60,550 nucleotides of DNA from a virus (taxonomy: Duplodnaviria > Heunggongvirae > Uroviricota > Caudoviricetes): the IMG/VR virus record IMGVR_UViG_2844443253_000004; one strand, written 5' to 3'. This document shows, one piece after another, positions 16,542-28,585 of this stretch. Position 1 is the first letter of the stretch. Each line of letters begins with the position of its first letter. The position numbers and the translations under genes are program-made. The notes beneath the pieces were generated by a model. It did not search any database. It was not told the origin of the DNA and saw nothing but the letters and a program-made list of their open reading frames with translations.

Positions 16542-16613
16542 TGAAGTGGCACACTGAATTTGGCCACCTGAACAGAGGTGATATGCTCACCTCAGAACAA
16601 CACAGGTGCTCCA

Positions 16614-16916
16614 ATGAAAAAAAGAAATTTTAGCGCAGAGTTTAAACGCGAATCCGCTCAACTGGTTGTTGACCAGAAATACACGGTGGCAGATGCCGCC
16701 AAAGCTATGGATGTTGGCCTTTCCACAATGACAAGATGGGTCAAACAACTGCGTGATGAGCGTCAGGGCAAAACACCAAAAGCCTCCCCCATTACCCCGG
16801 AACAAATTGAAATCCGTGAGCTCAGGAAAAAGCTACAACGCATTGAAATGGAGAATGAAATATTAAAAAAGGCTACCGCGCTCTTGATGTCAGACTCCCT
16901 GAACAGTTCTCGATAA
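16614..16916 (+). CDS. IS911 OrfA
   Basis: [46 protein letters not shown]...; A AAA AAG frameshift heptamer at 16865-16871. Confidence 0.9.
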
Positions 16917-17303
16917 TCGGGAAACTCAGAGCGCATTATCCTGTGGTCACACTCTGCCATGTGTTCGGGGTTCATCGCAGCAGCTACAGATACTGGAAAA
17001 ACCGTCCTGAAAAACCAGACGGCAGACGGGCTGTATTACGCAGTCAGGTACTTGAGCTACATGGCATCAGCCACGGTTCGGCCGGAGCAAGAAGCATCGC
17101 CACAATGGCAACCCGGAGAGGCTACCAGATGGGACGCTGGCTTGCTGGCAGGCTCATGAAAGAGCTGGGGCTGGTCAGCTGTCAGCAGCCGACTCACCGG
17201 TATAAACGTGGTGGTCATGAACATGTTGCTATCCCTAACTACCTTGAAAGGCAGTTCGCCGTGACCGAGCCAAATCAGGTGTGGTGCGGTGATGTGACCT
17301 ATA
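16868..17303 (+). pseudogene. IS911 orfB exon 1 (interrupted by group II intron)
   Basis: frame ends ...VWCGDVTY then intron GTGTG at 17304. Confidence 0.85.
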
Positions 17304-17959
17304 GTGTGCCCGGAGTTCAGGGCGGGCATGGATGCTTAAATGAACCGCGAGTCTGTCTGGAATATTGAACCGGTAACTCACGATGAGAAACCCAACAATC
17401 CCACCGGGTGTGACGGTGGAGAACCTGAGCGGCAGTGACCTGCGGCATGCCCGCAGGGTGATGTAACCCGCTGACAACGGGGATTGAGGCGAGATCACTA
17501 AGCCGAGATGATCCTCAAGGTTAAGTACTGAAAGGCTGAAGAACATGAACCCGTTAATCCGCCTCTGTGGGTTGAAAACGTCACCACGGTCTACGTGATC
17601 TGACAGGCCGTGCAGGAGGAACTGGCAGTGATACGTAAGCACTGCCGGTCGAAGGTGTTTTGACATGTATGCGAAACACCGGGGCAGCAGCGTCTATCAC
17701 GCTTGCGTTGCTGACTTCTGCCAACTTGCGGCAAGCAAGGATAAAGAGTGCGACGGGCAGCCTCCTCAGTATGCCTGAGTCCAGGCAGGTAAACCGGGGA
17801 AGGTCAGCGACGGATGTTAAGGGGGCATGGCTCCGATGACGCGCTGGCTGGCGGAGCTTCCGTAGTAGTCCGCGATGGGGAAAGCCCATTACATGGCGAA
17901 GGGAAGCAGTTTGAATGTGTTTGCGACGTGAATTAACTGACCTAACGAGGTGAAGACCT

Positions 17960-25534: not shown

Positions 25535-27803
25535 TAGAGTAAGAGGCAGGGCGTAGTCGGACTATTTCCCTGCCTCTCCTCCCCGAACCGGACGTGCACC
25601 TTTCAGCGCATCCGGCTCTCCATTTAAATGCTGGCGAACGCCATTGCCACTTCTGTAAAGCGCGATGTATACGTGTTTCTGGTCTCCGTCCTCAGATAGG
25701 GATTACCTTCGGGTAGCCGCCAGCGGAACAGCTTCTTGCCTTGCCCCACCAACCGGTACAGTATTTCGCCGCTGAGCTTGCCGTGATTGGTTTTACCAAA
25801 TAAAACCCACGTTTTGCTCTGACCCGGTTTCGGTGATTTACACCACCACCTCATCAGGGAAGCGATACCTGTACGGTATTTGCGGGCCAGCCAGTGAGCC
25901 AGCTTCCAGAACACGACACGGTCGATATAACTGAAGACTTTGGCCTTAAAATCAACGAACTGATAGAACATGGCCCAGCCTTTCAGTTTTCGGTTGAGTT
26001 GTTCAGCCATATCGACTTTGCTTTCACTGTAGTTGCCTGATAACAGTGCTGTCAGCGATGCGGCGAAGTTTCTGGCTTTCTCCTGCGGGATCGTTGAGAC
26101 CACTCGCATCTCGCCATAACGACTGCGTTTGCGAATGATCCTGTGCCCCAGAAAGATAAAGCCGTCATTAACATGGGTGATTTTAGTCTTATCCATGTTC
26201 AGCCTGAGTTTCAGACTGCCTTCGAGCACACCCCGACACTCCTCCCTGATGGCTTCCGCCTGTGCTTTGGTGCCTTTGACGATGAGGACAAAATCATCGG
26301 CATAGCGGCAGTACGCCACCGCGGGTTTCCACTGCCAGTTTTCTCTGACCGCCGTACTTCGGCCCCGTTGGATACTGTTATTCCAGTACCACCGATCTTT
26401 TCTGGCTTTCCCGCTCAGGTAGCGCTCATGCAGGTATTGATCGAACTCATTCAGCATGATGTTCGATAATAGCGGCGATATAACACCGCCCTGTGGCACA
26501 CCTTCACTGGCCGCCCGAAAGAGACCGACATCGATATGTCCCGCCTTGATGGTTTTCCACAGCAGAGTCATGAAACGTGCGTCACTGATCCTGCGGCGTA
26601 CAGCCTTCATCAGCAGTCGATGATGTACGGTGTCGAAGTAACTGGACAGGTCGCCTTCAATCACCCAGCGTCCCCGGGTTTCACCACAGTCTGTGAGCTG
26701 TAATTTCACCGTGCGGATCGCGTGGTGGACACTGCGCTCAGGCCGGAAGCCATATGAGAGCGTATGAAAATCACTCTCCCATATCGGCTCCATCGCCATC
26801 AGCATGGCCCGCTGAACAATACGATCCCGCAACGCGGGGATACCCAGTGGTCGCAGTTTGCCGTTGCTTTTAGGGATGTAAACCCGTCTGGCGGGCAAGG
26901 GCTGGTAGTGGCCTGAGAGTAATTCATCCCTGAGGATTTGCAGCTCAACAGCCAGTCTGGCCTGTAGCATTGTTTTGTTCACGCCATCAACGCCGGGGGT
27001 ATGGGCCCCCTTTGATGAAAGCGTGATCCGCGCCGCTTCAGCCAGCCATTCTGGTTGTGTTATCAGACGCAGCAGCCGTTGAATCCGTAGGGACGGATCG
27101 GTGGCTGCCCATGTGGCAAGCTTGCGTTGCATTTCGCTGATTATCAAAGGTCTTCACCTCGTTAGGTCAGTTAATTCACGTCGCAAACACATTCAAACTG
27201 CTTCCCTTCGCCATGTAATGGGCTTTCCCCATCGCGGACTACTACGGAAGCTCCGCCAGCCAGCGCGTCATCGGAGCCATGCCCCCTTAACATCCGTCGC
27301 TGACCTTCCCCGGTTTACCTGCCTGGACTCAGGCATACTGAGGAGGCTGCCCGTCGCACTCTTTATCCTTGCTTGCCGCAAGTTGGCAGAAGTCAGCAAC
27401 GCAAGTGTGATAGACGCTGCTGCCCCGGTGTTTCGCATACATGTCAAAACACCTTCGACCGGCAGTGCTTACGTATCACTGCCAGTTCCTCCTGCACGGC
27501 CTGTCAGATCACGTAGGCCGTGGTGACGTTTTCAACCCACAGAGGCGGATTAACGGGTTCATGTTCTTCAGCCTTTCAGTACTTAACCTTGAGGATCATC
27601 TCGGCTTAGTGATCTCGCCTCAATCCCCGTTGTCAGCGGGTTACATCACCCTGCGGGCATGCCGCAGGTCACTGCCGCTCAGGTTCTCCACCGTCACACC
27701 CGGTGGGATTGTTGGGTTTCTCATCGTGAGTTACCGGTTCAATATTCCAGACAGACTCGCGGTTCATTTAAGCATCCATGCCCGCCCTGAACTCCGGGCA
27801 CAC
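25535..27803 (-). mobile_element. group II intron, copy 2
   Basis: mirror of 17304-19572. Confidence 0.85.
25624..27147 (-). CDS. group II intron reverse transcriptase/maturase (copy 2)
   Basis: 507 aa, one amino-acid difference from copy 1. Confidence 0.88.
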   Translation of the reverse strand: MIISEMQRKLATWAATDPSLRIQRLLRLITQPEWLAEAARITLSSKGAHTPGVDGVNKTMLQARLAVELQILRDELLSGHYQPLPARRVYIPKSNGKLRPLGIPALRDRIVQRAMLMAMEPIWESDFHTLSYGFRPERSVHHAIRTVKLQLTDCGETRGRWVIEGDLSSYFDTVHHRLLMKAVRRRISDARFMTLLWKTIKAGHIDVGLFRAASEGVPQGGVISPLLSNIMLNEFDQYLHERYLSGKARKDRWYWNNSIQRGRSTAVRENWQWKPAVAYCRYADDFVLIVKGTKAQAEAIREECRGVLEGSLKLRLNMDKTKITHVNDGFIFLGHRIIRKRSRYGEMRVVSTIPQEKARNFAASLTALLSGNYSESKVDMAEQLNRKLKGWAMFYQFVDFKAKVFSYIDRVVFWKLAHWLARKYRTGIASLMRWWCKSPKPGQSKTWVLFGKTNHGKLSGEILYRLVGQGKKLFRWRLPEGNPYLRTETRNTYTSRFTEVAMAFASI

Positions 27804-28239
27804 TATAGGTCACATCACCGCACCACACCTGATTTGGCTCGGTCACGGCGAACTGCCTTTCAAGGTAGTTAGGGATAGCAACATGTTCATGACCACCACG
27901 TTTATACCGGTGAGTCGGCTGCTGACAGCTGACCAGCCCCAGCTCTTTCATGAGCCTGCCAGCAAGCCAGCGTCCCATCTGGTAGCCTCTCCGGGTTGCC
28001 ATTGTGGCGATGCTTCTTGCTCCGGCCGAACCGTGGCTGATGCCATGTAGCTCAAGTACCTGACTGCGTAATACAGCCCGTCTGCCGTCTGGTTTTTCAG
28101 GACGGTTTTTCCAGTATCTGTAGCTGCTGCGATGAACCCCGAACACATGGCAGAGTGTGACCACAGGATAATGCGCTCTGAGTTTCCCGATTATCGAGAA
28201 CTGTTCAGGGAGTCTGACATCAAGAGCGCGGTAGCCTTT
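27804..28239 (-). pseudogene. IS911 orfB exon 1 (copy 2)
   Basis: mirror of 16868-17303. Confidence 0.85.
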
Positions 28240-28493
28240 TTTAATATTTCATTCTCCATTTCAATGCGTTGTAGCTTTTTCCTGAGCTCACGGATTTCAA
28301 TTTGTTCCGGGGTAATGGGGGAGGCTTTTGGTGTTTTGCCCTGACGCTCATCACGCAGTTGTTTGACCCATCTTGTCATTGTGGAAAGGCCAACATCCAT
28401 AGCTTTGGCGGCATCTGCCACCGTGTATTTCTGGTCAACAACCAGTTGAGCGGATTCGCGTTTAAACTCTGCGCTAAAATTTCTTTTTTTCAT
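28191..28493 (-). CDS. IS911 OrfA (copy 2)
   Basis: [21 protein letters not shown]... Confidence 0.9.
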
Positions 28494-28585
28494 TGGAGCA
28501 CCTGTGTTGTTCTGAGGTGAGCATATCACCTCTGTTCAGGTGGCCAAATTCAGTGTGCCACTTCAGACATTCTGAGGTGACAGCG

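Follow-up and report, generated by a model that had tools for sequence, protein, structure and literature searches.

How did two nearly identical 3.5-kb elements, each an insertion sequence (IS) of the IS911 type interrupted by a group II intron, come to lie in inverted orientation around a 5-kb prophage segment? The question is raised by the virus record IMGVR_UViG_2844443253_000004 (IMG/VR; Caudoviricetes), the whole 60,550-nt stretch of which is referred to here as the window. Comparison with Shigella flexneri makes it highly probable that the two elements, copies A and B, are old IS911 rearrangement scars, each of which later received a copy of the known intron E.c.I4. With similar confidence, the window is regarded as a region of the S. 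flexneri chromosome in which fragments of at least three defective prophages (two of them labelled P1 and P2 below) are joined by IS600, IS911 and IS2. The comparison covers the listed assemblies (L numbers below; up to 24 contigs and 10 displayed places per search), at least 13 of which hold both copies. The main value of the analysis is a correction: the apparent 3.5-kb mobile pair would really be two IS911 scars that were colonised later.

Structure and identity of the two copies

A single inverted repeat pair was returned for the 14-31 kb part of the window by a repeat finder, which reported its length as 3,522 bp. Reading the junctions directly gave 3,519 bp for each copy; the extra three bases (20061-63 / 25044-46) are a chance extension in which two of three match. 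The copies and their parts are as follows.

16542-20060, + strand: copy A, 3,519 bp
16542-17303 and 19574-20060, + strand: IS911 of copy A, with orfA at 16614-16916
17304-19573, + strand: group II intron of copy A, 2,270 nt, GTGTG...CTAC, A-type haplotype
17975-19483, + strand: reverse transcriptase (RT)/maturase open reading frame (ORF) of the copy A intron
19487-19573, + strand: domain V/VI of the copy A intron
25047-28565, - strand: copy B, 3,519 bp
25047-25533 and 27804-28565, - strand: IS911 of copy B, with the intron in between
25534-27803, - strand: group II intron of copy B, B-type haplotype, with the RT ORF at 25624-27132

Both copies run from TGAAGTGG to CCACTTCA and are 4,986 bp apart. 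A base by base comparison found seven mismatches (99.8% identity), at positions 17590, 17701, 18103, 18118, 18421, 18857 and 19956. On the + strand, copy A is flanked by TTT and GTG and copy B by CAA and GAC, a 3-bp direct repeat being absent at both, and all four junctions (J1 to J4) interrupt genes, the outer ones as well as the inner. The original prediction, made from the window alone, had described two inverted, near-identical IS911::intron copies of about 3.5 kb, and their coordinates, inversion and identity are borne out. It was likewise right that the inner junctions truncate genes (a DUF1133 gene lacks its first 112 nt and a toprim gene ends at nt 1826 of 2907) and that target duplications are missing, although the CTT it gave for one flank is one base off.

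Each copy consists of an IS911 of 1,249 bp (762 + 487) and a 2,270-bp group II intron within orfB. The terminal inverted repeats of the IS are imperfect and start TGAAGTGG, and its length without the intron agrees with the approximately 1,250 bp of IS911. OrfA matches HTH_Tnp_1 (Pfam, 3.8e-14) and OrfB, after removal of the intron, matches the rve integrase core (DDE; Pfam, 2.9e-32). E. coli copies that are 99.1-99.7% identical across the whole 3.5 kb, or 99.1-99.5% when compared with copy A, one of them in strain E24377A, are annotated in RefSeq as IS911 plus ltrA, and in the intron-less comparison RefSeq-annotated IS911 copies are 99.0-99.2% identical. Because the intron splits orfB in both copies, transposase could be provided only after splicing or in trans.

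The intron was recognised in both copies by its domain V/VI (Rfam RF00029, 64.9 bits, cut-off 40), and its boundaries, GTGTG...CTAC, fit the GUGYG...AY rule. The 502-aa RT/maturase ORF is intact in both (Pfam RVT_1, 2e-34; GIIM, 1.3e-10), and the two proteins are one residue apart (L295I). An empty homing site is present in the intron-less assembly L005, where GACCTATA and TCTGGACGG are joined exactly across the junction, and removal of the intron from the window restores the OrfB frame (...CGDVTY followed by IWTGKRW...). A simple exact-complement search for exon-binding sites EBS1 and EBS2 (pairing with intron-binding sites) gave no clear assignment. E.c.I4 is known to home into a fixed position of the transposase genes of IS629, IS911, ISEc16 and ISEc31, and seven copies are reported for E. 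coli E24377A (Leclercq & Cordaux 2012, PMC3522654). The IS911-borne copy in that strain (H100) is 99.1% identical to the window element over approximately 3.5 kb. Judged by the homing site and this identity, the window intron is probably of the E.c.I4 type.

Intron occupancy among S. flexneri assemblies

Occupancy of the two IS911 copies varies between assemblies. Neither A nor B carries the intron in L005, L006, L007, L011, L012 and L013; five assemblies (L008, L010, L014, L015 and L018) carry it in A only; and, among the assemblies listed, only the window has it in both. Copy B is without an intron in all of the other assemblies inspected. The presence of intron-less IS911 at exactly these junctions in most assemblies means that the IS911 copies came first and the introns later. 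The two introns of the window are distinct haplotypes with six differences. The A-type is nearer to the E. coli copies (8 mismatches, against 12 for the B-type), and the A-copy intron of L008, L010, L014, L015 and L018 is the B-type of the window (0-1 intron mismatches). Position 19956, an exon single-nucleotide polymorphism (SNP), reads T in copy A and C in copy B throughout the assemblies, a copy-specific pattern that speaks against extended conversion tracts from one copy to the other.

Judged by these sequences, the near-identity of the 3.5-kb repeats is best explained by two independent colonisations of old IS911 copies and not by duplication of a unit. The 3.5-kb unit would then never have moved, and the introns would have entered resident IS911 copies later and separately. 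In the proposed course of events, the two IS911 copies are old recombinant joints that have become fixed within a single S. flexneri clade. E.c.I4 would later have entered the orfB homing sites of A and B on separate occasions, from two donor haplotypes, either by retrohoming, the expected route, or by short-tract conversion from other IS911::intron copies. With the introns in place, the inverted homology would have grown almost threefold, from 1.25 to 3.5 kb.

The identity of 99.8% over 3,519 bp could also have come about if the whole 3.5-kb IS911::intron element had transposed, its intact IS911 ends being such that it could be mobilised in trans, or if copy A had converted copy B. Both routes are improbable, as IS911 without an intron occupies both sites in most assemblies, the introns differ at six positions, with the B-type found in copy A of five strains and the window A-type nearer to E. 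coli, and the copy-specific exon SNP at 19956 was left untouched. Somewhat less probable again is an artefact of assembly, for example the polishing of both repeats with one copy. Repeats of this size are prone to assembly error and no other inspected assembly has an intron in B, but a collapsed repeat would be identical, whereas the window has two distinct, self-consistent haplotypes, each known elsewhere, with the exon SNP still copy-specific and both intron-exon junctions precise.

A further strain-specific intron-bearing insertion was seen in the same prophage region of L015 (WACK01000005.1, nt 19538-20423), where an additional RT/maturase gene lies just 3' of Q; the window has none at the equivalent position (~31889).

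Four junctions and their uninterrupted targets

The junctions of the two copies were compared with relatives in which the interrupted genes are whole. The four junctions are listed below, the caret marking the point in the uninterrupted sequence at which IS911 is joined in the window.

J1 (outer left of A), 16306-16541, - strand: 3' fragment of an Rz-type lysis gene, 98.7% to the reverse complement of L001 19799-20034; uninterrupted TTCAGCTTT^CGCATCAGC
J2 (inner, A), 20061-20503, + strand: DUF1133 / Q-like antiterminator-family gene without its first 112 nt; uninterrupted GTATATTG^GTGGCGG
J3 (inner, B), 23221-25046, + strand: toprim primase-helicase gene with a LAGLIDADG intein, cut at nt 1826/2907 inside the intein; uninterrupted CTGCGCAA^TGGGGTTG
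J4 (outer right of B), 28566-30852, + strand: last 10 nt of an LvrA-like gene, DnaC/IstB-like loader gene (28586-29464) and DnaB-like helicase gene (29461-30852); uninterrupted GACAAACT^GACATTCTG

Leftwards of J1 lie the DedA gene, a gene for a 254-aa protein, and PBSX-type terminase, portal and head genes of P1, all on the - strand, and this side is 99.75% identical to the reverse complement of L003 8557-10980. The J2 side matches L003 from nt 6001, within the gene at L003 5889-6443; the remnant covers only positions 45-176 of the Pfam DUF1133 profile and has an ATG-initiated ORF at 20081-20503. The toprim gene at J3 is 99.1% identical to L001 8989-10816 and matches Toprim_2 in Pfam; its matches to Hom_end_hint and LAGLIDADG_3 are weaker and do not reach the curated cut-offs. 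Copy B lies in the LAGLIDADG endonuclease region of the intein, about 28 residues into the LAGLIDADG_3 match. The J4 side is 99.8% identical to L002 6001-6900 (LvrA-like gene, L002 5018-6010), with Pfam matches to IstB_IS21 and DnaB_C. As an aside, selfish elements are nested four deep at 23221-28565: a prophage, an intein in its replication gene, IS911 in the intein and a group II intron in IS911.

Related genomes, which the original prediction had proposed as a source of the uninterrupted arrangement, thus contain four separate and unrelated genes (Rz, DUF1133, toprim and LvrA-like), and a simple insertion is found for copy A alone (L019 and L024, see below). Since the four targets are unrelated, they do not pair up as simple insertions, as an inversion between A and B, or as a composite transposon. 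Junctions J1 to J4 and the orientation of A and B are the same in at least 13 displayed assemblies.

The lack of direct duplications would be explained if homologous recombination between A and B had flipped the segment 20061-25046 in the past. The copies are inverted and 99.8% identical, their swapped flanks agree at two of three bases when read in IS orientation (TTT/TTG and GTC/GTG), and reading frames followed by hand seemed to run on through the swapped joints (from 23221-25046 to 16541 and below, and from 20622-20061 to 28566 and above). That continuity was rejected as a coincidence, the joined ORFs translating to nonsense. This history is very unlikely, because the swapped flanks are not duplications (TTT versus TTG, GTC versus GTG), no pairing of flanks restores any gene, the targets being unrelated, a single orientation occurs in all of the at least 13 assemblies, and the inverted 3-bp duplication that marks such an event is absent.

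What this signature looks like can be seen in L013 (AE014073.1, S. flexneri 2a 2457T). There, a third IS911 is present at the equivalent of window position 15559-15561 (L013 3364-6841; window equivalent 15559-20060), the DedA-Rz piece of 983 bp that separates it from copy A has the opposite orientation to that in other strains, and the CTT target appears as an inverted duplication. This different IS911 pair, which serves as a positive control, may have arisen either by insertion followed by recombination or by duplicative inversion.

The least probable explanation is that A and B are arms of a composite transposon that carried the 5-kb segment in as a unit: the inverted IS911 copies do bracket a discrete segment with their IRL ends outward, but the outer flanks TTT and GAC form no duplication and belong to different prophage modules (Rz versus LvrA-like/DnaC-like), the inner flanks are prophage genes cut short, and in other lineages the parts they lack lie next to the same IS911 copy, and the unit was found at no other location, none of the 5,426 complete E. 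coli genomes having either copy with both of its flanks.

Origin of copy A

This IS911, joined at its right end exactly as in the window, is found in assemblies L019 and L024 within a DUF1133 gene that is complete apart from the insertion; GTG is perfectly duplicated around it, and the early genes of P1 lie upstream. These assemblies represent the simple-insertion ancestor of copy A, and for this copy the original prediction, that the pair did not originate as simple insertions, does not hold. Copy A is accordingly pictured as having entered the DUF1133 (Q-like) gene of P1 as a normal insertion that produced the GTG duplication. Its left (IRL) flank would later have been exchanged, the 5' half of the Q-like gene being replaced by the inverted P1 late region starting inside Rz, either through an IS911-mediated inversion or through exchange with another IS911 copy outside the window. 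The absence of a duplication at the window copies is a secondary loss.

The two flanks of copy A match one prophage type in L003 (99.6-99.75%), in opposite orientations, which is the geometry to be predicted if inverted IS911 copies, one at the Q-like and one at the Rz site, had recombined. The same flank differs in other lineages: in L021 it is a deletion reaching QueH, and in L010, L014 and L018 it is an ahpCF-dsbG-LysR neighbourhood. The order and mechanism of the flank exchanges are presumably as outlined here.

Origin of copy B

In L019 and L021 the O-like fragment and the 3' end of the toprim gene are connected by an IS911 oriented as in the window; beyond the toprim gene follow the nin region, an intact LvrA-like gene and the DnaC-like and DnaB-like genes. 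Because toprim and the LvrA-like gene were collinear, copy B corresponds to a loss of approximately 4.9 kb. It would be a deletion joint that connects the 5' part of the toprim/intein gene to the 3' end of the LvrA-like gene, formed by adjacent deletion or by recombination between two direct copies.

A different state is found in L024 (UAUS01000007.1, nt 14927-16270), in which the left end of IS911 meets the toprim gene at the exact nucleotide used in the window (25046/25047) but in the opposite orientation, with chromosomal genes on its other side. Recombination within the IS cannot interconvert the L024 and window states at J3. The toprim target beyond J3 (TGGGGTTGTTCAAC) lies at an edit distance of 4 over 13 nt from the right end of IS911, a value reached by about 1.1% of control-locus positions and thus a loose, no more than suggestive resemblance. 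The toprim/intein site may be an end-like hot spot for IS911, the same nucleotide having been hit in both orientations in different lineages.

Two further arrangements were observed at this site. In L011 (CP085202.1, nt 12314-14161) the IS911 at copy B is partially duplicated in tandem, and window positions 28572-29281, inside the DnaC-like gene, are deleted, another lineage-specific rearrangement adjacent to IS911. In L017 (CP034931.1, S. flexneri 2013C-3749, nt 13140-20423) there is no IS911 B and similarity to the window ends at 24332; the toprim gene specifies 626 aa, as would be expected if it had no intein, and a complete nin-Q-lysis region comes next. L017 represents either a different phage module that was swapped in or the uninterrupted state of another lineage.

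Overall interpretation

Several points weigh against two separate scars that were colonised by retrohoming. The reciprocal joint, which would run from the DUF1133 5' half ending GTATATTGGTG through IS911 to the Rz 5' half TTTCGCATCAGC on the reverse strand, was not found in the window. The L024 state implies that the history of J3 may be one of repeated hits at a preferred site and not of a single event. Retrohoming is inseparable here from short-tract gene conversion by a third IS911::intron copy, which would be an alternative route of intron entry. Finally, the comparison is confined to the listed assemblies, so that a rare assembly in which the segment is inverted, or in which A and B both carry the intron, may have escaped notice. 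Of the other missing halves, neither the toprim 3' end nor the Q-like 5' end has a counterpart in the window, and the same holds for the early genes of P1 and for the flanks present in L018 and L024.

The two-scar history nevertheless remains highly probable, and it retains part of what the original prediction proposed: as they now stand, the copies are no pair of simple insertions, and the junctions of both were shaped by recombination through IS elements. Movement as a composite transposon is contradicted by the outer flanks, inversion between A and B by the four targets, and IS911::intron as the moving unit by the intron-less copies.

Inversion of the 5-kb segment 20061-25046 is a plausible and reasonable prediction, as the geometry is suitable (3,519-bp inverted repeats of 99.8% identity). 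The reversed segment was found in none of the at least 13 displayed assemblies that hold both copies, all of which share the orientation of the window but which, as consensus sequences, would not reveal flipping within a population. A bolder proposal is that E.c.I4 is currently active in S. flexneri and, with two or more haplotypes as donors, repeatedly colonises IS911 copies already in place, and that the segment may flip measurably. This is tentative and on present sequences rather doubtful; under it, there may have been at least three separate intron arrivals at the A and B sites across the assemblies seen. On this view, the tripling of the inverted homology around a 5-kb, tRNA-bearing prophage fragment in this strain would make flipping at the population level possible.

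The locus is a case of ordinary mobile-element biology, with no new element, mechanism or function and no demonstrated invertible switch. Published work already covers the elements, the homing site, this type of rearrangement and even the argument about recombination; longer homology for ectopic recombination has been proposed as a cost of introns (Leclercq & Cordaux 2012, PMC3522654). The locus illustrates that an IS lacking its target duplication preserves the trace of an earlier deletion or flank exchange, that occupancy of an IS by a group II intron differs between close Shigella strains, and that the arrival of an intron lengthens the homology available for ectopic recombination.

The surrounding prophage region

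The fusion protein formed by the truncated toprim gene and IS911 (619 aa) is encoded, as an exact match, on many S. flexneri chromosomes, as is the DUF1133 remnant. Strains with the fusion protein include 2457T (AE014073.1) as well as M2901, AUSMDU00010535, 2016AM-0877, 2013C-3749 and FDAARGOS_535 (the last five listed as S. flexneri in PMC9455713). Either copy together with both of its flanks was found in none of 5,426 complete E. coli genomes, searched with and without the intron; a 74% match from the E. coli search (H160) was rejected as a different IS911 insertion, in the gene for the 254-aa protein. The remaining features of the region are as follows.

2918-5780: Mu-like remnant with c repressor, ner and the 5' part of transposase A; 96.6% to phage Mu
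5779-7043: IS600 copy 1, flanks TAT/TTC, joining the Mu A fragment to P1 structural genes
7043-16541, - strand: P1 late genes (head, portal, PBSX-type terminase, 254-aa gene, DedA, Rz 3' fragment)
12787-14117: IS2, interrupting the large terminase gene (PBSX type); its 5-bp duplication, ATTGC, is intact
20061-21772, + strand: P1 fragment containing the Q-like DUF1133 gene (first 112 nt missing), the four tRNA genes and the 5' part of the holin gene
20693-21002, + strand: four tRNA genes, anticodons CAT, TCT (Arg), TGT (Thr) and TCC (Gly)
21692-21772, + strand: class II holin gene, 5' fragment interrupted by IS600; 96.3% to L001 18874-18954
21773-23009, - strand: IS600 copy 2, flanks CAG/GTC; 99.6-99.8% to annotated IS600 in L001
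23010-25046, + strand: P2 fragment, comprising the O-like 3' end and the toprim/intein gene
23010-23206, + strand: lambdoid O-like replication gene (helix-turn-helix), 3' end only; 99.0% to L001 8655-8851
28566 onwards: right of copy B, with the last 10 nt of the LvrA-like gene, DnaC-like, DnaB-like, NinH, Q and lysis genes
34423-35687: IS600 copy 3, flanks GGG/ACT, with lambda/21-like structural genes beyond

The Mu-like remnant ends at IS600. A 3-bp target duplication is missing at all three IS600 copies, and the sequences on the two sides of each are unrelated: copy 2 connects the P1 holin fragment to the P2 O-like 3' end, and copy 3 connects the 5' part of Rz to a truncated small-terminase gene. 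The IS2 is a simple insertion and provides an internal control for the analysis of junctions. The tRNA genes were assigned from Rfam, ARAGORN and the RefSeq annotation of relatives, in which the tRNA with the CAT anticodon is annotated as Ile. The region that includes the holin fragment is contiguous with L003 up to nt 7712.

A 176-bp stretch of Rz occurs twice, inverted and 100% identical, at 16366-16541 and 34246-34421. The Rz 3' fragment adjoins copy A of IS911 and the 5' fragment adjoins IS600 copy 3; because they overlap, the two fragments are not halves of one gene.

Comparison with known systems

With composite transposons such as Tn10 and Tn5 the locus shares two inverted IS copies around a segment, but the window unit lacks a flanking duplication and a cargo function, its outer flanks are unrelated and it is not seen elsewhere. 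The IS-bracketed inversions and deletions of Shigella, a general phenomenon (PMC11708052), are similar in having flanks from different loci and lineage-specific states. Among these, the neighbouring example in 2457T has the inverted-duplication signature, whereas the A/B pair is without a documented inversion in either direction.

The copies have in common with IS911 (IS3 family, Shigella/E. coli) the terminal repeats, the length without the intron, the orfA/orfB layout and the rve domain. The 3-bp duplication that IS911 makes on insertion is absent in the window and shows in the ancestral state of copy A, as the GTG of L019 and L024. The window copies differ from typical IS911 in being recombinant joints without duplications, and in having orfB split by the intron right after the CGDVTY motif.

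E.c.I4 (nomenclature of the Zimmerly database) and the window introns agree in fixed homing into IS3-family transposase genes, in the RT/maturase and in strain-specific occupancy. Published counts give one full-length E.c.I4 and 42 free sites for S. flexneri 301, and one inactivated copy for 2457T (PMC3522654). Compared with these, two IS911 copies only 5 kb apart are occupied here by two haplotypes, and five further assemblies hold the intron in copy A.

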